Made by a program: the position numbers and the translations under genes. From contig MWEK01000012.1 in assembly GCA_002070955.1 (NCBI GenBank), positions 35,514-99,513 of the forward strand: a stretch of 64,000 bases of DNA, given 5' to 3'. The notes under the pieces are model-generated. The model had not been told where the DNA came from. It saw only the letters and a program-made list of their open reading frames with translations, and ran no database searches. Below are positions 13,710 through 52,618 of the stretch, piece after piece; the first letter of the stretch is position 1, and each line of letters starts with the position of its first letter. The stretch is from Planctomycetes bacterium ADurb.Bin069 (GTDB lineage: Bacteria; Planctomycetota; UBA8108; UBA8890; UBA8898).

Positions 13710-13808
13710 ATTATGGCGCATCCCTCGGCGGTTGTCAAGGTGGTCGTAAGGCGGCTCCTTGGCATGATCGTTGCGGGGAACTTGACGCCGGGTTGTCTTG
13801 ACGTTAAG

Positions 13809-14524: not shown

Positions 14525-16531
14525 ATGAAATGCGCGGGCGACATCCAGCTCGTACGGACGATCAAGGAGCGCTGCCGCATCTGCTTCACCTGCGTGCGGG
14601 AATGCCCCGCCAAGGCCATCAGGATCGTCGAAGGCCAGGCCGAGGTGGTGCCCGAGCGCTGCATCGGGTGCGGCAACTGCATGCGGGTGTGCAGCCAGAA
14701 CGCCAAGCAGGTGCTCGACGGGAAGCCGGACACGGCCGCGCTGCTAGCCTCGGGCGCGCCCGTCGCGGCCCTGGTCGCCCCGAGTTTTCCGGCGGAGTTC
14801 GTCGAGTGCGGGTGGCGCGAGTTCGTGGGCATGTTGCGCGCGCTGGGCTTCGCCTTCGTCAACGAGGTCGCTTTCGGCGCCGATATCGTCGCCGAACGCT
14901 ACCGGCGCCTGCTCGCCGAGCATGACGGGAAGCGCTACATTGCCACGACCTGTCCGGCGATCATCTCCTTCGTGGAGCAGTACCACCCCGAGCTGGTCAA
15001 GTTCCTGGCGCCGGTGGTCTCGCCCATGGTGGCGGAGGCGCGGGTGCTGCGCAGCATCCACGGCGACGGGGTTAAGCAGGTCTTCATCGGCCCCTGCATC
15101 GCCAAGAAGGGCGAGGCGGCCAGCGAGAACGTTCCGGACGAGGTCGATGCCGCCCTGACCTTTCAGGAGCTCCGGCAGATGTTCGCCGAGGCCGGCATCA
15201 CGCCGGAAAACGTGCGGCCGAGCGATTTCGACCCGCCGCGCGCCGGTCTCGGGGCGCTCTTCCCCTTGAGCCGCGGCTTGCTCCAGACCGCGGGGCTCGA
15301 CGAGGACCTGCTCACGGGCCACGTGGTCGTGACGGGCGGACGGCAGAACTTCGTCCAGGCCCTGCGCGAGTTCGAGAAGGGCGACCTCAACACGCGGCTC
15401 CTGGAGATTCTGGCCTGCGAAGGCTGCGTGATGGGGCCCGGCGTCACGAACGATACGCCGCTTCTGACCCGGCGGGCCAACGTCAGCCGCTACGTGCGCG
15501 AATGCCACGCGACGCTGGACCTGGCGCGCTTCCGGGCGGACCTGGACCGATGCGAGAAAATCGATTTCACGCGGGGGTTCAAGGTCTACGATCAGCGCAT
15601 GCCGGTGCCGCCCGAGGAGGAGATCAGGAATGTGCTGGAGCGCATGGGCAAGGAGGAGCCCGCCGACGAGCTGAACTGCGGCGCCTGCGGCTACGACACC
15701 TGCCGCGAGCACGCCGTGGCGATCATCGAGGGGCTCGCCGAGCACGAGATGTGCCTGCCGCATTCCATCGAGCGGCTGCACAAGACGGTGAAAGACCTGG
15801 CCGCTTCGAATCGACAGCTCGCCTCGACCCAGGAGGCGCTGCTCAACTCCGAGCGCCTCGCGAGCATGGGGCAGCTCGCCGCCGGCATCGCCCACGAGGT
15901 CAACAACCCCCTGGGCGTGGTGCTGATGTTCGCGCATCTGCTCCGCGAGCAGCACGCCAAGAACCCGGCGCTTGCCCAAGACCTGGCCCTGATCGTCGAG
16001 CAGACCGATCGCTGCAAGAAGATCGTGGCGGGCCTGCTCAATTTCGCGCGCCAGACCAAGGTTCTCAGGCAGCCCTTCGATGTGCGCGAGCTCGTCAACC
16101 GCACGCTTCAGACCATGCCGCCCCCCGCGGGCGTCAAGGTGCGCGTCGAGCATGGAATCGAAGACCCGGTCGCCGAGATCGACCGCGATCAGATCGCGCA
16201 GGTCCTCGTCAATCTGATCACGAACGGGTACCAGGCCATGGCGGGCGGGGGCGTGTTGAGCGTGCGCACCCGCGGCGATGCCGACACGGCGGTCATCGAG
16301 GTGGCCGACACCGGCGTGGGCATCCCCAAGGAGAACCTGACGAAGATCTTCGAGCCGTTCTTCACGACCAAGCAGATCGGCACGGGCACGGGCCTGGGGC
16401 TCGCGGTGAGCTACGGGATCACCAAGATGCATAACGGCGGCATCGCCGTGGAATCCAACATCGACCCCGCCCGGGGGCCGACCGGAAGCACGTTCACCGT
16501 CACGCTGCCGCGCCGGGGGGCCGACGCTTAG
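14525..16531 (+). CDS. Putative sensory [FeFe]-hydrogenase (HydS-like, group C type) fused to a histidine kinase (HisKA + HATPase_c)
   Basis: N-terminal 2x 4Fe-4S ([23 protein letters not shown]). H-cluster-like motifs [22 protein letters not shown] and [12 protein letters not shown] Cys-rich linker CGACGYDTC is followed by the H-box (IAHEVNNPL) and N/G1/G2 boxes (LITNGYQA...DTGVGI...[11 protein letters not shown]). Confidence 0.85.
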
Positions 16532-16548
16532 CGCGGAAGGAGAGATTC

Positions 16549-17697
16549 GTGGGAGCAACGACACTGAAAATCCTGGTGGTCGATGACGAGCCTGGGATGC
16601 AGATCGGCGTCGAGCGCGCCCTCAGGGACTACGCCGTGCATGTCGCCGAGGTGAACGAGGATGTGCGCTTCGAGGTCGAAACCGCCGGGAGCGGCGAGGA
16701 TGCGCTGGCGCGCATCGAGAACGTCCCGGCGCCGCCGCACCTCCTGCTGCTGGATCACATGCTGCCCGGCATGACCGGCCTGGATGTGCTCGACCGCCTG
16801 GCGGGCAGGGATCTGGAGCTCCTCACCATCATGATCACGGCGTATGCGTCGCTGGAGACCGCCGTGACGGCGACGAAGCGCGGGGCCTACGATTTTCTGG
16901 CCAAGCCCTTCACGCCGGCCGAGCTCAAGAACGTGATCCAGAAGGCGGCGGCCCGGCTGCTCCTGGCGCGCCAGGCGCGCGCGCTGGCCCGCGAGCGGCA
17001 CCAGGTGCGCTTCCAGTTCATATCGGTGCTGGCGCACGAGCTCAAGGCGCCCCTGGCCGCCGTCCAGGGCTACCTGGCCATCATGCGCGACCGCGCCGCC
17101 GGCGATACGATCGACGATTACGACGAGGCGATCGGGCGCTGCCTGGCCCGGGTGGAGGGGATGCGCAAGCTGATCCTCGATCTGCTCGATCTCACGAAGA
17201 TCGAATCCGGCCAGCGCGCGCGGGAGATCGCCCCGCTGGATCTCTGCGACGCCGTGCGCCACGCGCTGGACACCTACCGGCCCGAGGCGGATGCGCGGCG
17301 GATCACGCTGGAGTTCGCGCCCGCGGGGCCGGTGCCGATGGAAGCCGACCGGAGCGAGATCGAGGTGATTCTCAACAACCTGCTCTCCAACGCCGTCAAG
17401 TACAACCGCGACGGCGGGAGCGTGACCGTGGAGTGCGGGGCCGAGGACGGCACCGTGACGATCGGCGTCGCCGACACGGGCATCGGCATGGGGCCTGAGG
17501 ATGTCAAGAAGCTGTTCGGCGATTTCGTGCGCATCAAGAACGAAAAGACCCGCAAGATCTCCGGCAGCGGCCTGGGCCTGGCGATTCTCAAGAAACTGGC
17601 GCTCTTGAACGGGGGCGACGTGAAGGTGGAGAGCACTCCTGATGTCGGGACGCGCTTCACCGTGACGCTCAACCAGCGTCAGACAAGCAAGGAATAG
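16549..17697 (+). CDS. Hybrid sensor: N-terminal receiver domain fused to histidine kinase (REC-HisKA-HATPase_c)
   Basis: GTG start at 16549 with GGAAGGAGAG upstream. REC motif (LKILVVDDEP...LLLLDHMLPG), H-box (LAHELKAPL) and ATPase boxes (LLSNAVKYN...DTGIGM...GSGLGLAI). Confidence 0.85.
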   Translation: MGATTLKILVVDDEPGMQIGVERALRDYAVHVAEVNEDVRFEVETAGSGEDALARIENVPAPPHLLLLDHMLPGMTGLDVLDRLAGRDLELLTIMITAYASLETAVTATKRGAYDFLAKPFTPAELKNVIQKAAARLLLARQARALARERHQVRFQFISVLAHELKAPLAAVQGYLAIMRDRAAGDTIDDYDEAIGRCLARVEGMRKLILDLLDLTKIESGQRAREIAPLDLCDAVRHALDTYRPEADARRITLEFAPAGPVPMEADRSEIEVILNNLLSNAVKYNRDGGSVTVECGAEDGTVTIGVADTGIGMGPEDVKKLFGDFVRIKNEKTRKISGSGLGLAILKKLALLNGGDVKVESTPDVGTRFTVTLNQRQTSKE

Positions 17698-42422: not shown

Positions 42423-43745
42423 TCACGGCTCGCCGCCGTACTGCTTCAAGCGGTAAAAGAGCGTCCGCCGGCTGATGCCGAGGAGCGCCGCCGCCTCGGT
42501 ACGGTTGCCGCCGGTCCGGCGCAGCGCTTCGCGGATGGCGAGGCGTTCCGCTTCCTCCACGCTCACGACGGGCGTCCGGTCGGGGCGGGCGGGGGGCGGC
42601 GCGGCGGAGGCGCGCAGCTTCTCCGGCAGGTGTTCGGGCAGGATGACGGCGCCCGCCGACAGAATCGCGGCGCGCTCGATGACGTTGGCCAGCTCCCGCA
42701 CGTTGCCGGGCCACCCGTAGGCCGCAAGGAGCGCCTGGGTCGCCGGCGACAGGCGCGCCTTCTCCTTGCCGGCGCGGCGCAGAAACAGGCGCGCGAGTTC
42801 GGGAACGTCCTCGGGGCGCTCTCGCAGGGGCGGCACGCGGATGTGAAACACGTTGAGCCGCCAGAAGAGATCCTCGCGGAAGCGCCCGGCGGCGGCCTCC
42901 TTCTCCAGATCCCGGTTCGTGCAGGCGATGATGCGCGCATCGGCGCGGCGGGTCCGGGACTCGCCGAGCCGCTCGTAGGCGCCGTCCTCCAAGACGCGCA
43001 GGAGCTTCGGCTGCACGTCGAGGGGCAGTTCGCCGATCTCGTCCAGAAGCAAGGTGCCGCCCGTCGCCGTCTCGAACCGGCCGCTGCGGTTGGCGTCGGC
43101 GCCGGTGAACGCGCCCTTCACGTGGCCGAAAAGCTCGCTTTCGACGAGGGTGCGGGGAATGGCGGCGCAGTTGACCGCGACGAAGGGCCCCGCGGCGCGG
43201 GCGCTCCGGGCGTGGATCAAGGCGGCGATTTTTTCCTTGCCCGAGCCGCTCTCCCCGGTGATGAGCACCGTGGCGTCGGTGGGCGCCACCATGTCGGCCT
43301 CGCGCACGACGCGCGCCATGGCCGGGCCGGCCGCCACGAACCCCTCCGGGAGGGGCGGCGGCGCCTCCTTCCCGCGCTCCTCGCGCGGGCCGGCGAGATC
43401 TTCGATCACGGCCATGAGCTCGTGGAGATCGACGGGCTTTTCCAGGTAGTCGGCGGCGCCTTTCTTGATGGCCTCCACCGCGTCGCGCACCTCGGCGTAG
43501 GCGGTGAGCAGGATCACGGGCAGCGCGGGCAGCCGGGCGCGCATGCGCGCGAGGCCTTCCAGGCCGCCCATGCCGGGCATGCGCACGTCCATGAGGACGA
43601 GGTCCGGCGCCTCCTCCTCCAGGAGCGCCAGCGCGCCTTCGGCATCCCCCGCGGCCCGGACGCGCAGCCCGCGGCCCTCGAGGAACTTCGCGATGATCTC
43701 GCGCTGGCGCGCGTCATCCTCGACGACGAAAATCAAAACGCTCAT
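42423..43745 (-). CDS. Sigma-54-dependent response regulator (NtrC family: REC-AAA+-HTH)
   Basis: REC (VLIFVVEDD), Walker [15 protein letters not shown] motif (HVKGAFTGA) and a C-terminal Fis-type HTH. Confidence 0.9.
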
Positions 43746-45148
43746 GGGACGGCGGTTCCCCTGATGCCCGCGATGCGCACGGTGGTGCCCGCGCCGACCG
43801 CGCTCTCGATGGCGACCTGCCACCCGTGGGCCTCGGCCAGGCGCCGAACGATGGCCAGGCCCAGACCCGTCCCGCCCGGCCGCAGGGAGTAGTACGGCCG
43901 GAAGACTTTGCCGAGCTCCCCGGCCGGAATGCCGGCGCCGTCGTCGGCCACTTCAATGGCGACGGTTCCGTCGTCCGCCGCCGCAGCGCGGAGCCGGATG
44001 CGGCCGCGGGGCCCGATGGCCTGCGCGGCGTTGACGAGGAGGTTGAGCAGAATCTGCCTGAGCATGCCGGCGTCGGCCAGAACCGCGAGGGGCTCGCCCT
44101 CGATTGCCACGGCGCCCTCCCGCGGCGCGAGGTCCGCCTCGATGAGCGCGGTCATGTCGGCGAAGAGGGTGGGCAGGGGCACGGGCGCGAGCGCGGGCTC
44201 AATGGGACGCGAGAACTGCAAGAATTCGTCGACCCGAGCGACGACGCGGTCGATCTCCTCGACCATGCGCCGGGCGGCATCGCGGTGGCGGTCCGGCGCG
44301 TCGGCGTCGTCGGCGAGCTGCTGCGCCAACCCCCGCACGACGGAGACGGGATTCTTGGTCTCGTGTGCCAGGCCGGCGCCCAGCAGGGCCCATTCGCGGT
44401 GCTGCGCGGCGCGCGTCTCCGCGACGGCCAGCTCGCCGCGCAGGAGCCGCGTTTTGCGGCCGCTCTGAAGGAGGAGGAAGAGGCCGGCGAAGGCGGCGCC
44501 CGCGGCGGCCACGATACCCGCCCGCAGGAGCAGGTCGCCGCGAATGCGCCGGTCGGTTTCCGAGCGGTCCAGAAAGAGAAGGAGATCGGCGGGCCTGGTT
44601 TCGGGGATCTCTTCCAGCGCGGCGCGCCCGCGGCCGGCGGGGCCCGGTCCGTACGGAGGGGCGTGGGGGCCTGGGGCGCGCCCCGGCCCGAGGCGGCCGC
44701 CGAGCCGCATCCCGCCGACGTCGATTCTGCGGGTCATGATCAGATCGGCGTCCGTCCAACACAGGGGCGCGACGCGCTTGGGGAGGGGCTGGGATTCGAC
44801 CGCGCCGGCGGCGGCGATGCGCGCGCCGTCCATGCCGAGGATGATCGCGCCCCGCACCTGCGGGATCTGGAGGACTTCGTCCAGCGCGCCGTTCATGAAC
44901 TCGGGGACCTCGCGCCGGCGCGGCCCCATGGAGCGCAGGGCGGCGTCGAGCATGTTGAGGTAGGCGCCGCCCTCGCGCTCCAGGCTCTCCCGGTGGCCCC
45001 GCGCGGCCAGCTCGTGCTCCAAGGCCTGCCAGACCAGCAGGCCGCCCCACGGGAGGGCGCACCAGAGCGCGAGAACGACCGCGGCGCTTGCGTCCAGGGC
45101 GGGCCGGGCGCCGGCGCCCGGCGCGGAGGAAGGCGGGGGTTCGCGCAT
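43742..45148 (-). CDS. Sensor histidine kinase (NtrB-like partner, membrane-anchored)
   Basis: H-box LAHETKNPV and ATPase boxes [11 protein letters not shown]...DDGAGIP...GTGLGLAI. There is a 4-nt overlap with the downstream regulator. Confidence 0.8.
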
Positions 45149-45276: not shown

Positions 45277-47031
45277 ATGAACCCCTCGGACCGTTCGCTC
45301 GCCGTGACCTTCCTTGAGCTTCCCGCCACCGTCGATGGCAGGCTTCATGGTCCTCAATCGCGGGACGTGTACTCGCTGTTCAGGCTGCCGGCCCGGTCGG
45401 CGGATCTGCTGGCGGCCATCGCCAAGCGCGCCGGCTACGGCAATGCCGCGGCTTTGACGCCCGCGTTGCGCAAGGGCGGGCGGCTTTCGGCCGAGGACTG
45501 GCAGCGGCTGCGGACTTCCGACGTGGTGGGAATATCGGTCATCACGCGCACGGCGCCGCCGTCCTACGAGGCCGCCCGGCTGATCCGCGCCGCCAACCCC
45601 CGGGCGACGATCGTTTTCGGCGGGCCGCACCCTTCGGCGCTGCCCGAGGAGGCCCTTCAATTCGGCGACGTCGTGGTCATGCGCGAAGGCGACCGCACGC
45701 TGGCGGAGCTTCTCGAGCGCTTGGCGGAGTCGCGGGAGCGCCCGCACCTGGCCGACGTCAAGGGCATTGCGTACAAGGACGGCGGGCAGGTGGTGGTGAC
45801 GCCGCCCCGGCCGTTCCTCACGGGGGCGGAGCTCGACGCCCTGCCCTTCCCGGTGTTTCCGCGCTACGTCCTTAAGCGCATCACCCACCAAACCGTGTGC
45901 ACCTCCCGCGGCTGTCCCTTCGGCTGCGAGTACTGCTCGGTCATCGAGAATTTCGGGCGCGGCTACCGCTGCCTGTCGGAAGATCGGACCATGGAGCTTC
46001 TGCGGCACCACCTCGCGCAGTCGCGCGCGCCGATCTTCTTCGCCGACGACAACTTCACGGCCAACCGGGCGCACACCAAGTCGCTGCTCGAGCGCTGCCT
46101 GTCCGAGGGGCTGACGCTGCCCGCCTGGAGTTGCCAGTCGCGGGTGGAGGCGGCGTTCGACGACGAGCTTCTGGACCTCATGGTCAAGACCGATTTCAGC
46201 ACGATCATGGTGGGGTTCGAGTCCGTCAACGACGAGACGCTCAAGCTGTGGCACAAGTCCTCCACGCTGGAGAAGAACATGGAGGCCGTGCGGCGCTTCC
46301 ACGCCAAGAGGATCTCGGTTCACGGGATGTTCGTGCTGGGCTCCGAGGCCGACACGGTGGAGACCATCCGCCAGACGATCGCCTTCGCCAAGGGCATGAA
46401 GCTGGACACCGCGCAGTTTTTCGCCATCACGCCGTTGCCGGGGCCGCCGCTGACGCGCAAGCTCGAGGAGCAGGGCTGCATTCTGACCCGCGCCTGGCAC
46501 CTCTACGACGCGCAACACGTGGTCGTCAAGCCGGCGCGCATGACGGCGATGGAGCTCCAGAACGGCATCATGCGCGCCTTCCGCGAGTTCTACAGCCCGT
46601 GGGAGGGCGTGAAGCGGCTCTTCGCGCGCGCCCCGCAGCGCCTCGAGAACTGCGTGATCAGGTTTTTGGGCCGGCGGCTCGTGCGGCGCGTCGCCAAGGA
46701 GACGCGGACGCATCGGCGGGGCCTGGAGCGGCTCAACGAATGGATCGGGCGTGTCGATGCCATGTACGCGAGCTCCAAGGAAAACCTCAAGGAGCTCCGG
46801 GCGTGGATCGAGGCGTCGCGGGAGGATTTCTCCAAGGCGCTCGATCGCGGCCGCGCGGAACTCGCCGAGCGCAAGGCGCGCCTGGTGGCGGGTTTCGAGG
46901 CGCACCTGAAGACCCTCAGGGAGAGCCTGGCTTCCCTGGGCGAGAGCTACCATCCTTTCTGCCAGCGGTTTCTCGACGAGCTCTACGCGCGCTTCCGCAA
47001 GGAAGCCGAGGCCGTGCTCGTGCCGGCGTAG
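45277..47031 (+). CDS. B12-binding domain radical SAM protein (class B) with C-terminal helical extension
   Basis: ATG at 45277 with GGGGAAGGAGAAAA upstream. Cobalamin-binding N-terminus. CTSRGCPFGCEYC contains the Cx3Cx2C radical SAM motif. Confidence 0.8.
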   Translation: MNPSDRSLAVTFLELPATVDGRLHGPQSRDVYSLFRLPARSADLLAAIAKRAGYGNAAALTPALRKGGRLSAEDWQRLRTSDVVGISVITRTAPPSYEAARLIRAANPRATIVFGGPHPSALPEEALQFGDVVVMREGDRTLAELLERLAESRERPHLADVKGIAYKDGGQVVVTPPRPFLTGAELDALPFPVFPRYVLKRITHQTVCTSRGCPFGCEYCSVIENFGRGYRCLSEDRTMELLRHHLAQSRAPIFFADDNFTANRAHTKSLLERCLSEGLTLPAWSCQSRVEAAFDDELLDLMVKTDFSTIMVGFESVNDETLKLWHKSSTLEKNMEAVRRFHAKRISVHGMFVLGSEADTVETIRQTIAFAKGMKLDTAQFFAITPLPGPPLTRKLEEQGCILTRAWHLYDAQHVVVKPARMTAMELQNGIMRAFREFYSPWEGVKRLFARAPQRLENCVIRFLGRRLVRRVAKETRTHRRGLERLNEWIGRVDAMYASSKENLKELRAWIEASREDFSKALDRGRAELAERKARLVAGFEAHLKTLRESLASLGESYHPFCQRFLDELYARFRKEAEAVLVPA

Positions 47032-47059: not shown

Positions 47060-48550
47060 CTAGAGCTCCCAACCCGGGCGGTAGGACCGCGCCAGGAGCC
47101 GGTTGGCGGCTTCCGAGTTCGTGAACCGGCGCGCCGCCGCGTCCCACGCGAGCTTCTTGTCGACGCGCAACGCGATGTTCCCCAGAAGAATCGTCTGGCT
47201 CCAGGGCCAGGCGCGCTCGAAACTCGCCTCGGTGGCCGGGCCGCCGCGGCAGGCCTTGATCCACTGGTCGACTTCCGGGAGGGGGCGGGCCAAGGTGGCG
47301 GGAGGCTTGGCGAAGGCGCGCATCTTCCGGGACGGAATCAAGCGGGGGTTGTCGCCCATGAATTCGGCCAGCAGCTTGCCCTCGTCGCCGACGAACATCA
47401 TGCCCTCCGCGGGGAGGTCTTCGCCGTCCTCCTCGAGCTCGGCGGGCAGCGGCGGCCGCAGGCCTCCGTCGTACCAGTAGAGGACGACGGGCGGCATGCC
47501 GTCGCGCGCGGGGAACTCCCAGCGGATCGCCGCCGCGCGGGGGAAAGACACGTTGTTCTCCTGCTTGACCCACAGGCAGTCCTCGATCTTCCAGAACTGG
47601 TCGCGGCCCGCCTCGACGGCGGACGGCGCGCCGAGGTTCAGGATCTTGAAGATCTGCGAGAAGCTGTAGTGGCCCATGTCGCCGAGGGCGCCGCTTCCGA
47701 AGTCGATCCAGCCCCGGAACACGGCGTGGGTGTAGGCGGGGTGGTACGGACGCGGCGGCACGGGGCCGAGCCAGAGGTCCCAGTCCAGGCCGTCCGGCAC
47801 CGGCGGCCGTTCGCGCGGCAGTTCGGTCATGCCCTGTGGCCAGAAGGGGCGCGTCGTCCAGTTGTGGACCTCGCGCACCGCGCCGATGGCGCCGGCCTGA
47901 ATCCATTCCCGCATGAGGGGCGTGGAGTGCTTGTCGGCGGCGCAGAAAAGATGCGTCGCGAGGCCGGTGGCCTTCGCCGTCGTCATGGCCAGGTGCGACT
48001 CGGAGAAGGTGTTCGCGACAGGCTTGTGCGTGATCGCGTGCTTGCCGAGGCGCATGGCGGCGACGACCACCGAGCCGTGGAGGTGGTCGGGCGTCATGTT
48101 GTAGACGGCGTCCAGATCCTTCTCCTTGGCGAGCATCTCCCTGAAGTCGGCGTAGGCGGGGCATTTCCAGCCGAGCCCGGTCTTGGCATAGTGCCGCTCG
48201 ACCAGCTCCGTGCCGACTTCGCGGCCGCAGCGGCAGCCTTTCGCGTCGGCGCCCCAGGCCGGGTCGTCGAGGAAGCGCCTGACCTTGTCCCGAATCTCGT
48301 TGCGGCCCCACTCGACGTAGTCGTCGGATCTGCGGTTGGGGTCGCACATGGCGGCGACGCGCATGTCGCCCCGCGGCAGCGCCTCGATCAGTTGGCGGAT
48401 GCCCTGGGTTCCCGCGCCGACGAAGGCGACGTTCACGCGGTCGCTGGGCGCGACGAATTTCGCGCCGGCGATGACGCGGCGCGGCACGGCGGTGAGGGCC
48501 GCCCCCGCGGCGGCGGCGGCCAGAAAACGGCGTCGGCTGGCGGTGTGCAT
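47060..48550 (-). CDS. Gfo/Idh/MocA-family oxidoreductase with Tat signal peptide
   Basis: SRRRFLAAAAAGAALTAV is a twin-arginine motif. VAFVGAGTQG is the Rossmann motif. ATG at 48550 with CAGGAGGAACC upstream. Confidence 0.85.
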   Translation of the reverse strand: MHTASRRRFLAAAAAGAALTAVPRRVIAGAKFVAPSDRVNVAFVGAGTQGIRQLIEALPRGDMRVAAMCDPNRRSDDYVEWGRNEIRDKVRRFLDDPAWGADAKGCRCGREVGTELVERHYAKTGLGWKCPAYADFREMLAKEKDLDAVYNMTPDHLHGSVVVAAMRLGKHAITHKPVANTFSESHLAMTTAKATGLATHLFCAADKHSTPLMREWIQAGAIGAVREVHNWTTRPFWPQGMTELPRERPPVPDGLDWDLWLGPVPPRPYHPAYTHAVFRGWIDFGSGALGDMGHYSFSQIFKILNLGAPSAVEAGRDQFWKIEDCLWVKQENNVSFPRAAAIRWEFPARDGMPPVVLYWYDGGLRPPLPAELEEDGEDLPAEGMMFVGDEGKLLAEFMGDNPRLIPSRKMRAFAKPPATLARPLPEVDQWIKACRGGPATEASFERAWPWSQTILLGNIALRVDKKLAWDAAARRFTNSEAANRLLARSYRPGWEL

Positions 48551-48697
48551 GGTTCCTCCTGGGAGAGCGTGATGCGCGACGGCTGCATCGTACCCGGCGT
48601 GCCGCGCGCCTCACAAGAGCCCGGCGCACGGGCGAACAACGAAAACGCGGCGCGCGCGGAAGATTCGATCCGCGCGCGCCGCGCGCAGGCCGGCCGG

Positions 48698-49582
48698 CTA
48701 CTGGCGGTAGTCGCAGATGCCGTCGTTGTTCCGGTCGACGAAACCAGGCCCGCGTCCGCGTCCCCAACCGGGGCCGGCCTGGGGCTGGGCCGGGGGATTA
48801 CCCATCGGTCCGCGTCCGCGTCCCCAGCCGGGAGCGCCCTGGGGCTGGGCCGGGGGATTGCCCATTGGTCCGCGCCCGCGTCCCCAGCCGGGGCCAGCCT
48901 GGGGCTGGGCCGGGGGATTACCCATCGGTCCGCGCCCGCGTCCCCACCCGGGGCCAGCCTGGGGCTGGGCCGGGGGATTGCCCATCGGCCCGCGTCCGCG
49001 ACCCCAACCGGGGCCGCCCTGCGGCGGAGCGGGAGGATTACCCATCGGTCCGCGTCCGCGTCCCCAACCGGGAGCGGCCTGCGGCGGAGCCGGAGGATTG
49101 CCCGCGGGACCTTGCCTGTAACCCCAGGCGGGGCCGCCCTGGAACGGAGCGCGAGGAGGCGGTCCCCACGGCCGGTTCCAGCATGGGCAGCCCGCGCGTC
49201 CCCGGAAGCCCGCGGGGGGCGCCGTCCCCTGAAGCCGATCGCAGACTCCGTCTCGGTTGCGATCGACGAACCACCGGCCGGGTCCGAACGCGGGGCCGAC
49301 CGGCCGCCCGAAGGCGCGGCCCGGTCCCGGCTGAAAGGCCGGAGCGCGGGGCGCCAAGCCTTGGATTCGGTCGCAGACTCCGTCTCGGTTGCGATCGACA
49401 AACCACGGACCGCGTCCGAACCACCCGGGCGGCGCGGGCGCGGGCGAATCGGGCGCGACCTGCGGTTGTGCCGGGGCGGGGCTTGCCTCCTGCGGCGCCG
49501 CCTCCTGCGCCATCGCGGCGCCGCAGGCCCAGAAGAACATGGCCGCGAACGCCAACGCCGTCAACGTTTTCGAGCTCAACAT
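48698..49582 (-). CDS. Secreted Gly/Pro-rich repeat protein with three FVDRNxDGxCD (EF-hand-like) motifs and about 6 tandem 20-aa repeats
   Basis: ATG at 49582 with CAGGAGGTGACGC upstream; signal peptide. The unit PMGNPPAQPQAGPGWGRGRG is repeated about 6 times. Motifs WFVDRNRDGVCDRIQG, WFVDRNRDGVCDRLQG and FVDRNNDGICDYRQ flank the repeats. Confidence 0.65.
   Translation of the reverse strand: MLSSKTLTALAFAAMFFWACGAAMAQEAAPQEASPAPAQPQVAPDSPAPAPPGWFGRGPWFVDRNRDGVCDRIQGLAPRAPAFQPGPGRAFGRPVGPAFGPGRWFVDRNRDGVCDRLQGTAPPAGFRGRAGCPCWNRPWGPPPRAPFQGGPAWGYRQGPAGNPPAPPQAAPGWGRGRGPMGNPPAPPQGGPGWGRGRGPMGNPPAQPQAGPGWGRGRGPMGNPPAQPQAGPGWGRGRGPMGNPPAQPQGAPGWGRGRGPMGNPPAQPQAGPGWGRGRGPGFVDRNNDGICDYRQ
48745..49135. 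repeat. Tandem direct repeats, about 6.3 copies of a 60-nt unit (coding repeats of the G/P-rich protein)
   Basis: The unit cccatcggtccgcgtccgcgtccccagccgggagcgccctggggctgggccgggggattg recurs with few substitutions. Confidence 0.8.
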
Positions 49583-49847
49583 GCGTCACCTCCTGTGTGA
49601 TCCACTCTGGCTCGCCGGACTGAAGCTGCGTGACTTTTAGCAACAACCATGCCAATGCGCGTTGAAGCTCTTTCGGCCCTCGCGAGCCTGGAAAAGGCGC
49701 CGCCGCCGCGCCGTCGCGCGTGGCAACGGGTGCAAGCCTTGCACTCCACCGGAGGCGGTGCAAGATCTGCCCGCGCCGCGCGGTTGCCGCCCCGGGCGCG
49801 CGGTGGTACAAGAAATGCGGCGGACGAATCGTTCCCGAGAGACTGTA

Positions 49848-51612: not shown

Positions 51613-51772
51613 TCGACGCCGACGAGGCGCGCGGCTCGGGGTGGTTGCGGCCTGAGGGACGTCGAATCCGCGGCAACCGACGGCCCGTGGCGGTTGCTTG
51701 CGCCGTCCGTCCGGGAGCCTACAATAAACCTTGGGTGGGCACGAGGCACCCGTGGTTGACAGGAGGCGTTCC

Positions 51773-52618
51773 GTGCACAGACTGCGGTCGGCATTGGCAA
51801 TTGCCGTATTGTGTGGGTCGGCGGCGCGGGCGGCTGATGCCGTGTACGCTGTCGCCGACACGGGGATCGCGCCGGGGGCGAAGGGCGCCCGCGTTCCCAT
51901 CGCGGCCATGTTCCCGCTACCGACTCAGGGTTTTTCGATGGCCCTGCGCCACGACTGCCCGGCATGCGCCGTTCGCGGGGTTACCACCGACGGCACGATC
52001 GCGTCCGAGGCGGATTTCGTGGAAATCCTCGTGGACGCGCAACTCCGCACGGTGGTCGTCGGGCTGCTGATGGCGGCCGCGCCGCCCGGCGGTCTCAAGG
52101 CGATCCCCGCGCTTCCCGAACCCGCCCCCGTCGTGGCGCTGGAAGTGGACGTGGATGCCGCCGCGGCGCTCGGCGAATTCGAGTTCCGGTTCGAGCCCGC
52201 GGGCTTGCCTTCGGGCGGCGCATGGGTCTACAACACGTACGCCGCCGACAACCGTTCCTTCCCCGTGACGCAGCTTCGGCCCGGCGTGGTGACGGTGGCC
52301 GAGGCGCCGCCGCCGGGGTTCCCCCGCTTCATCCGCGGCGACGCCAACCAAAACCTCGAGCTGGACCTCTCCGACGTCATCTACATGCTGAACGCGCGCT
52401 GGATGCGGCCCGGCAGACCGCCGTGCCTCGATGCGTGCGATGTCAACGATGACGGCAAGCTCGACGTCGCCGACCCGATCTATCTCCTGAGCTACCTCTT
52501 CGGCAAGGGCCCGCGGCCGCCCGTGCCCGGGCTTGTGCCCGGCATCGACTGGACGCCGGACTCCCTGGACTGCGAGCACCCCGCGGCAGGCTGGCTCACG
52601 GACTTCTGGCCGCGGTGA
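51773..52618 (+). CDS. Secreted protein with C-terminal dockerin-like double-repeat module
   Basis: GTG at 51773 with AGGAGG 6 nt upstream; signal peptide. RGDANQNLELDLSDVIYMLNARW and CDVNDDGKLDVADPIYLLSYLFGKG resemble type-I dockerin Ca-binding repeats. Confidence 0.65.
   Translation: MHRLRSALAIAVLCGSAARAADAVYAVADTGIAPGAKGARVPIAAMFPLPTQGFSMALRHDCPACAVRGVTTDGTIASEADFVEILVDAQLRTVVVGLLMAAAPPGGLKAIPALPEPAPVVALEVDVDAAAALGEFEFRFEPAGLPSGGAWVYNTYAADNRSFPVTQLRPGVVTVAEAPPPGFPRFIRGDANQNLELDLSDVIYMLNARWMRPGRPPCLDACDVNDDGKLDVADPIYLLSYLFGKGPRPPVPGLVPGIDWTPDSLDCEHPAAGWLTDFWPR

Follow-up and report, generated by a model that had tools for sequence, protein, structure and literature searches.

Gene, product and regulatory region

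A 64-kb stretch of contig MWEK01000012.1 from Planctomycetes bacterium ADurb.Bin069 (hereafter the window, by which we mean the whole stretch analysed) carries an open reading frame (ORF) of 294 aa (48698..49582, -) for a presumably exported Gly/Pro/Arg-rich protein, which contains six tandem units of 20 aa and three copies of the motif [WG]FVDRNxDGxCDxxQ. The ORF is a genuine gene rather than a spurious call: besides appearing in the ORF list, it has an ortholog in the planctomycete UBA4800, and a near-identical protein, P0001, is recognised by the profile of the protein family described below. Very probably, the gene is a sigma-54 target of a ZraSR-like two-component system encoded nearby in the window.

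The N-terminus of the protein, MLSSKTLTALAFAAMFFWACGAAMA followed by QE, has the n/h/c layout typical of a Sec signal. The signal peptide, as read from the sequence, would span residues 1-25 (49508..49582, -) with likely cleavage between AMA and QE, and we take the protein to be exported by the Sec pathway. A single-sequence AlphaFold2 model (mean predicted local distance difference test score, pLDDT, 42.6) has one confident helix (residues 4-22, pLDDT about 82), which coincides with the signal peptide; everything outside this helix scored below 50, and small beta-bridges were placed with low confidence at each motif of the mature protein. The mature product is accordingly modelled as largely disordered. 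An FFWAC segment in the signal region raised the possibility of a lipobox, and thus of a lipoprotein, which we rejected because the UBA4800 ortholog lacks the Cys, yet keeps AMAQ(E/D). The mature part consists of 22% Gly, 22% Pro and 11% Arg, contains five cysteines, and is basic (30 Arg vs 12 Asp plus Glu). A preliminary description of the locus had called the product a secreted Gly/Pro-rich protein, and both the composition and the signal layout agree with it.

Motif 1 (WFVDRNRDGVCDRIQ, residues 60-74; 49361..49405, -) and motif 2 (WFVDRNRDGVCDRLQ, residues 104-118; 49229..49273, -) were located by pattern scan, and motif 3 (GFVDRNNDGICDYRQ, residues 280-294; 48701..48745, -), placed by the protein register, forms the extreme C-terminus. 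A C-terminal motif was also found in the proteins of loci L007, L018 and L020 and in proteins P0003 and P0006. All three copies listed in the preliminary description were recovered; its statement that they flank the repeats is right in that motifs occur on both sides of the array, the precise layout being two N-terminal and one C-terminal to it. Besides these three, the six frames of the window contain no match to D-x-[ND]-x-[DN]-G-x-C-D. A cysteine pair, GCPCW (residues 131-135; 49178..49192, -), has the counterpart CCPCC in the ortholog. Searches of Pfam and NCBIfam with the window protein and its closest homologs, including those at L002 and L004, returned nothing significant, and Rfam and tRNA scans of the window were empty.

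The region upstream of the gene contains a series of putative regulatory elements. The strong Shine-Dalgarno sequence claimed earlier is present as AGGAGGTGA (49586..49594, -), 3 nt before the ATG, and is conserved in UBA4800. A consensus match to a sigma-54 (-24/-12) promoter, TGGCATGGTTGTTGCT (49639..49654, -), lies 57 nt upstream of the ATG; it is the one match to TGGCAY-N5-TTGCW in the window, vs 0.07 expected, and also the top-scoring site of the 64 kb. Farther upstream, we found a perfect palindrome, GTGCAAGCCTTGCAC (49730..49744), a candidate enhancer or upstream activating sequence (UAS) that also occurs upstream of the homologous genes at L002 and L004, and, by a mismatch scan, an imperfect second copy, GTGCAAGATCTGCCC (49758..49772), 28 nt from the first, neither being assigned to a strand. 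Both are of the GTGCAA-N3-TTGCAC type and are the sole matches with at most two mismatches in the window, and the candidate regulator-binding sequence reads GTGCAAGGCTTGCAC.

These elements are conserved beyond the window. The sigma-54 promoter sequence is identical in UBA4800, where the promoter, the palindrome, the second TTGCAC block and the Shine-Dalgarno region form conserved islands in an otherwise diverged spacer. The L002 homolog (37% identical), which resides in a genome of much lower G+C content, is preceded by TGGTATGCTTGTTGCA and GTGCAACTCTTGCAC, and L002 also has an analogous second UAS site. No sigma-70-like promoter was found upstream of the 294-aa gene. Downstream, an intrinsic terminator with a 16-bp stem (14 G-C pairs) and a T-rich tail begins 13 nt after the stop codon (48645..48684, -). 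Judged from these elements, the gene appears to constitute a single-gene sigma-54 transcription unit comprising enhancers, -24/-12 promoter, Shine-Dalgarno sequence, ORF and terminator, a proposal that shares the modest confidence we place in the overall explanation below.

Divergence and copy number of the repeat array

The array comprises six in-frame 60-nt units (48749..49108, -) encoding P(M/A)GNPPA(Q/P)PQxxPGWGRGRG at residues 159-278, as delimited by Tandem Repeats Finder and the protein register. The program reported a period of 60 nt and 5.9 copies (48750-49103, score 512, 88% matches), and this was the sole strong tandem repeat of the window. The preliminary description was therefore correct in the number and length of the units. 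It had, however, called them near-identical or perfect and extended the array over 48745..49135, whereas the array stops at 49108, and any two units show 2-13 differences over their 60 nt. Between units, 3-9 codons differ synonymously vs 0-3 non-synonymously, and codon 3 alternates between GGC and GGT in successive units, generating a higher-order period of 120 nt. Because the differences are mostly synonymous, with the alternating codon 3 superimposed, the divergence pattern reads as that of an old array with purifying selection on the peptide, not of recent slippage or assembler stutter. A frame disruption within the repeats was looked for, and none of the units breaks the reading frame.

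Collapse or expansion of the repeats by the assembler, which had been left open at first, is improbable where the six-unit form is concerned. Within the gene, 12 31-mers recur but no 41-mer does, and ordinary reads should therefore resolve the array. Furthermore, the window sequence is found with 100% identity across 13.4 kb, the six units included, in three public records, namely a 1.2-Mb SPAdes contig in ENA, a 440-kb JGI contig and an NCBI third-party-annotation (TPA) metagenome-assembled genome (MAG), of which the JGI and NCBI records are possibly of common origin and not independent. A Logan contig, which holds the one shorter version, carries only two units and is otherwise identical except for one single-nucleotide polymorphism. 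The two-unit junction falls exactly in a 32-nt word common to the boundaries of units 1/2 and units 5/6; this form could be a real (homologous) deletion allele or a shortcut of short-k assembly.

Between species, variation in copy number is real. Comparison with relatives, as proposed in the preliminary description, uncovered length polymorphism: the UBA4800 ortholog, 71% identical to the window protein, has ~2.5 units instead of six, and additionally carries a segment rich in Cys and one motif more, the fourth. In a separate 90%-identity cluster of gut or Clostridia type (P0125), the members are 83, 106 and 137 aa long, which suggests gain or loss of units. As for annotation of the 294-aa gene, the ENA and JGI records list it; the gene table of the NCBI TPA MAG (GCA_035357425.1) omits it and has, in its place, an ORF of 83 aa on the other strand (L042:1509-1760, equivalent to 49389-49640 of the window).

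Association with a ZraSR-like two-component system

The two-component system in the window consists of a ZraS/AtoS-like sensor histidine kinase (43742..45148, -; Pfam HisKA and HATPase_c) and a sigma-54-dependent response regulator of REC-AAA+-HTH_8 architecture in Pfam (42423..43745, -), presumed to be the activator of the 294-aa gene. The cytoplasmic part of the kinase is 37% identical to E. coli ZraS, and the top NCBIfam match of the kinase is ZraS at 165 bits, a score that falls well short of the equivalog cut-off and is equalled by AtoS. From its sequence, the kinase appears to have two membrane-spanning segments around a periplasmic domain of ~160 aa at about residues 42-204; the predicted periplasmic part includes, at residues ~150-175, a G/P/R-rich stretch similar in composition to the repeats of the 294-aa protein. 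Over its full length, the regulator shares 45% identity with E. coli ZraR; it shares 58% with the regulator at L002, and no other sigma-54 activator was detected in the window.

Association of motif genes with such systems recurs in distantly related bacteria. In a motif-side search, patterns derived from the family profile were scanned over genome and metagenome collections, and a homologous kinase and sigma-54 regulator were found beside a motif gene in the lineage of the window and L004 as well as at L002, L012, L013, L018 and L038, L012 being from Verrucomicrobiota and L013 from Acidobacteriota. In a kinase-side search, eight contexts of kinase homologs were inspected. A protein with four motifs is encoded immediately upstream of the kinase homolog at L044, with an 11/11 match to the sigma-54 promoter, and motif ORFs lie in the same position at L046. 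Two further kinase homologs adjoin genes for other secreted proteins, a G-rich protein with CDGTG at L051 (10/11 sigma-54 site) and a DUF2202 protein at L049 (9/11 site). Altogether, eight independent lineages have motif genes next to a homologous two-component system, mostly with sigma-54 promoters. Sigma-54 sites scoring at least 10/11 have a background of 0.0055 per 300 nt (estimated over about 1 Mb of strand sequence), and yet, among the first 38 related loci, seven independent lineages have such a site upstream of the family gene, as do L044 and L051.

Some secreted proteins found in these searches deserve separate mention. DUF2202 (ferritin-like) secreted proteins with sigma-54-like promoters are encoded at L007:6284-7096 and L049:4608-5291; the former ends in FVDKNGDGICDYRQ, the same C-terminal motif, and the latter is without the motif, yet lies beside a kinase and a sigma-54 regulator homologous to those of the window. 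Small secreted G-rich proteins at L013:9923-10261, L038:3487-3813 and L051:4357-4692 carry a second motif, (I/T/L)CDGTGPKG; the FVD motif occurs in some of this group only, and all of them adjoin the same type of two-component system. At L045:3717-4406 (-), divergent from the kinase homolog, an ORF with a His/Cys/Trp-rich repeat, CIWHDWPHEPEHCEDAAAGCM.HELPHCDAVCDP, may encode a metal-binding partner or be a spurious call.

In E. coli and Salmonella, ZraP is a periplasmic zinc-binding chaperone which depends on sigma-54 and ZraR and responds to envelope stress (PMC4987338). The window gene resembles the ZraPSR system in encoding a small exported protein, in its sigma-54 promoter, and in its linkage with a ZraSR-type HisKA kinase and an NtrC-family REC-AAA+-HTH regulator, and the protein shares a Gly-rich GxGxG tail with ZraP. 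On the other hand, it has DxNxDGxCD loops and the 20-aa array in place of the helical LTxxQ core, no similarity could be detected between the periplasmic domains of the kinase and ZraS, the gene is not divergent from the two-component system, and the host is a member of Planctomycetota. By analogy, the window protein would hold ZraP's place in the circuit, although it does not belong to the ZraP family.

A protein that combines features of both types is encoded at L012. Besides the signal peptide, it comprises a coiled-coil region, a tail rich in G and one copy of the motif, and the coiled-coil region matches NF008584 (ZraP) with E=1.5e-5 and PF13801 (Metal_resist) with 28.7 bits vs a cut-off of 29.2; a near-threshold ZraP/Metal_resist region and the motif are thus fused in one polypeptide. 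The proteins at L018 and L020 have a layout like that at L012 and align with E. coli ZraP across its PD..KI..L...LRQ helix and GxGMGxG tail. Of these parts, the window protein retains no more than the G-rich region and the motif, in multiplied form.

The motif family, cation binding and alternative explanations

The preliminary description had suggested an HMM (hidden Markov model) search for the motif family, and this approach uncovered a large one. With a profile built from 13 motif copies, 1,235 clusters at 50% identity were retrieved at E<=1e-3, 213 of which had E<=1e-10. We defined members as small signal-bearing proteins with at least two copies of [FY][VI]-D-x-[DN]-x-[DN]-G-[VI]-C-D, and the window protein has three; protein P0001, which differs from it by one substitution and an 80-aa deletion of repeats, matched the family profile with E=1.2e-38. 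Most family proteins are 100-260 aa long with 3-4 motif copies (range 2-6) separated by G/R-rich spacers, and 135 of the 151 examined among the matches listed carry an N-terminal hydrophobic stretch. The window protein is a clear member by profile and shares with this FVDxNGDGxCD family the form of a small secreted protein with motif repeats. It differs from the usual members in its spacers (44 and 176 residues vs 12-30), its array of six Pro-rich 20-aa units, the CD(R/Y)xQ ending of its motifs, and its sigma-54/two-component control, the last two being absent in most members.

Names offer little guide to function in this family. A cluster look-up gave 'hypothetical protein' only, plus one 'YkoI' label, and a second database searched with the motif profile returned only proteins of at most 83 aa, all unnamed or 'hypothetical'. 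Part of the family is flagged in precomputed annotation as PF27309 (MJ0753_N), with a faint match on P0001 and P0004; literature searches on motif strings and MJ0753 retrieved no papers.

A peptide representing the motif reads GPWFVDRNRDGVCDRIQ. Family-wide, the loop shows D1, N/D3, D5, G6, V/I7, an invariant C8 and D9, with mostly G or Q at position 12; all three window loops have Arg at position 2 and Gln at position 12. The ligand spacing of an EF-hand, with donors at positions 1, 3, 5 and 9 and Gly at 6, is present in all three motifs. The likeness to EF-hands and lanthanide-binding tags covers a 12-residue loop with D1, N3, D5, G6, a hydrophobic residue at 7 and an acidic one at 9, with V/I directly in front of the loop and an aromatic residue before that (compare YIDTNNDG). 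The differences are the invariant Cys 8 and Gln/Gly instead of Glu at 12, and, from EF-hands, that no flanking helices appear in the low-confidence AlphaFold model of the window protein. Mimicry of an EF-hand or dockerin loop had been proposed at the outset, and the first half of this proposal stands as far as the D-x-N-x-D-G spacing is concerned. The EF-hand HMM itself fails, as detailed below, and neither dockerin type I nor thrombospondin type 3 gave a Pfam match at E<=10, a level at which HMMER filters can drop very weak ones. Excalibur domains, the motif of which is DxDxDGxxCE, are similar in their extracellular setting and in a D-x-D-x-D-G-type loop followed by Cys and an acidic residue; in the window motif, DxNxDGxCD, the Cys comes one residue earlier, and the N-terminal partner cysteine is missing. 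Disulfide stapling of loop pairs through Cys 8 was considered and rejected, as even Cys counts are not enriched (65 even vs 82 odd among 147 members).

Comparison of the profile with PDB sequences placed the lanthanide-binding-tag fusions 2OJR and 3VDZ (GPGYIDTNNDG) at the top with non-significant scores (E=0.12 to 4), and the cell wall hydrolase 5UDM, through a loop of its CHAP domain, was also among the best, non-significant matches. These short matches served as leads rather than as evidence of homology. The ligands of the tag are D3, N5, D7, the W9 carbonyl, E11 and E14 (PMC12160965), which correspond to D, N, D, V/I, D and Q of the motif.

From these data, we can outline how the system may work. 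The periplasmic domain of the ZraSR-like kinase would sense an envelope or metal signal, and the kinase would phosphorylate the NtrC-type regulator. As the sequences and their conservation suggest, the regulator would then bind the paired GTGCAA-N3-TTGCAC sites and activate the sigma-54 promoter. The product, exported by Sec, would stay largely disordered, and its three D-x-N-x-D-G-(V/I)-C-D-x-x-Q loops may bind cations through oxygen ligands at EF-hand positions 1, 3, 5, 9 and 12 and the backbone carbonyl at position 7, next to the invariant Cys at position 8. The likeliest ligands would be Ca2+-like hard ions, while Zn, Cd or Pb could be bound through Asp/Cys. The six GWGRGRG/PMGNPP units could act as a flexible basic spacer, the length of which differs between species. 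Such a protein might be induced to act in the periplasm as a metal-binding accessory, a buffer or a holdase, perhaps with feedback on the kinase. We lean, with no great confidence, towards this explanation as a whole, in which the gene product is inducible and exported, binds cations and takes the position of ZraP as the target of a ZraSR-like sigma-54 system.

Several observations weigh against this explanation. The two-component system is 3.5 kb off rather than adjacent to the gene, and an oxidoreductase gene and a radical SAM gene intervene. Four of the eight kinase homologs inspected (L045, L047, L048 and L050) have no such secreted-protein neighbour. The two-component system and the sigma-54 site are both absent from the majority of family members, Bacteroidota and Clostridia types among them, so that the association is confined to a subfamily. 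A ZraP/CpxP helical domain is lacking in the window protein, as judged with PF13801 (Metal_resist) and NF008584, and the proteins at L018 and L020 reach no ZraP HMM threshold. With regard to the loops, the canonical acidic residue at position 12 is missing, E being present there in only 40 of ~510 family motifs. The EF-hand HMMs (PF00036, PF13202) did not recognise the protein (EF-hand_1: E=2.5, 8.3 bits vs a cut-off of 25.4), nor did that of Excalibur (PF05901; 9.7-12.8 bits vs a cut-off of 22). Because position 12 is non-acidic and the EF-hand and Excalibur scores are far below threshold, the loops are to be regarded as no more than candidate cation-binding sites.

The preliminary description had instead seen in the gene a variable surface or matrix protein. 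On this explanation, the array would expand and contract by slippage, and the cell surface or a biofilm matrix would thereby become antigenically or structurally diverse. Unit number does vary, with six units here vs ~2.5 in UBA4800, two on the Logan contig, and members of unequal length in another family cluster (83, 106 and 137 aa), and a protein with 30 Arg vs 12 Asp plus Glu could stick to anionic polymers. Nevertheless, the synonymous divergence of the units implies that slippage is neither recent nor frequent, the identical six-unit allele is found in three public records, and a junction within a 32-nt common word, as in the two-unit form, is also expected from a short-k assembly shortcut. 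Searches of Pfam and NCBIfam with the window protein detected no cell-wall, outer-membrane or sorting anchor and no adhesin or matrix domain, and tight sigma-54/two-component control is typical of a conditional stress response, not of a constitutive surface layer. A surface or matrix role thus found no direct support, and we regard it as improbable. Because of the promoter, the enhancer sites and the conserved ZraSR-like linkage, an inducible exported protein related to envelope or metal stress is more likely than a variable surface protein.

Two other explanations start from the neighbourhood and from the loops, respectively, and we give either of them very little chance. Between the 294-aa gene and the two-component system lie the genes for a B12-binding radical SAM enzyme (45277-47031, +) and a GFO/IDH/MocA oxidoreductase (47060-48550, -), the N-terminus of which, MHTASRRRFLAAAAAGAA, resembles a twin-arginine signal, and which is 90% conserved in UBA4800 (tblastn). 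If the Cys/Trp/Gly-rich units were substrates of these two enzymes, the protein would be the precursor of a modified peptide, and some multi-core precursor peptides are known to contain core-like units in repeated form. The repeat units, however, contain no Cys, and radical SAM enzymes are cytoplasmic, whereas this protein bears a Sec signal. In addition, the terminator stands between the 294-aa gene and that of the oxidoreductase, and the radical SAM enzyme is encoded on the other strand; its gene is absent from the gene lists of other family loci with the two-component system (L002, L012, L018 and L044). We rejected the link to the radical SAM enzyme on the grounds that its gene is limited to this lineage and that the protein has the Sec signal. 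Alternatively, the protein could be a dedicated high-affinity binder of an uncommon cation such as a lanthanide, like lanmodulin or engineered tags. The first 11 residues of family motifs (GPGYVDxNNDG) are almost those of the engineered GPGYIDTNNDG, all six ligand positions offer an oxygen donor or backbone carbonyl, and a Trp is located three residues before the first loop Asp in motifs 1 and 2. A Pro at loop position 2 is characteristic of lanmodulin, and the three loops have neither this Pro nor the Glu 12 of lanmodulin-type loops; they carry Arg at position 2, and position 12 is Gln/Gly, not a bidentate Glu. Moreover, the PDB matches were non-significant, and no lanthanide-dependent enzymes or xox genes are present in the neighbourhood.

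Returning to the ZraP-like explanation, a broader version is attractive to speculate on, albeit we hold it to be rather doubtful. In Planctomycetota, Verrucomicrobiota and Acidobacteriota, a species-variable exported array of helix-less EF-hand-type loops with an invariant Cys may replace the helical ZraP as the partner of ZraSR-like systems, and the loops may represent a widespread metal-binding module found in more than 1,000 clusters. If the ZraP-like explanation itself is right, cation binding under envelope-stress control would be the first functional handle on a large unnamed secreted family (1,235 clusters), and the ZraPSR paradigm would extend beyond enterobacteria. The periplasmic partner would apparently be exchangeable (a helical domain, a motif array or a fusion of both), with the sigma-54/two-component wiring kept, and the motif would be a short natural relative of lanthanide-binding tags.

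Finally, two other features of the window were noted. A weaker sigma-54-like site, TGGCATGATCGTTGCG (9/11), occurs at 13760-13775 (+), ~2 kb from a histidine-kinase/receiver region at 15875-17652 detected by tblastn. Two kb from the 294-aa gene, an ORF of 295 aa (51731-52618, +) encodes a separate EF-hand-like Ca-loop protein, the C-terminal part of which bears the dockerin-like segments DANQNLELDLSDVIYMLN and DVNDDGKLDVADPIYLLSYLF.

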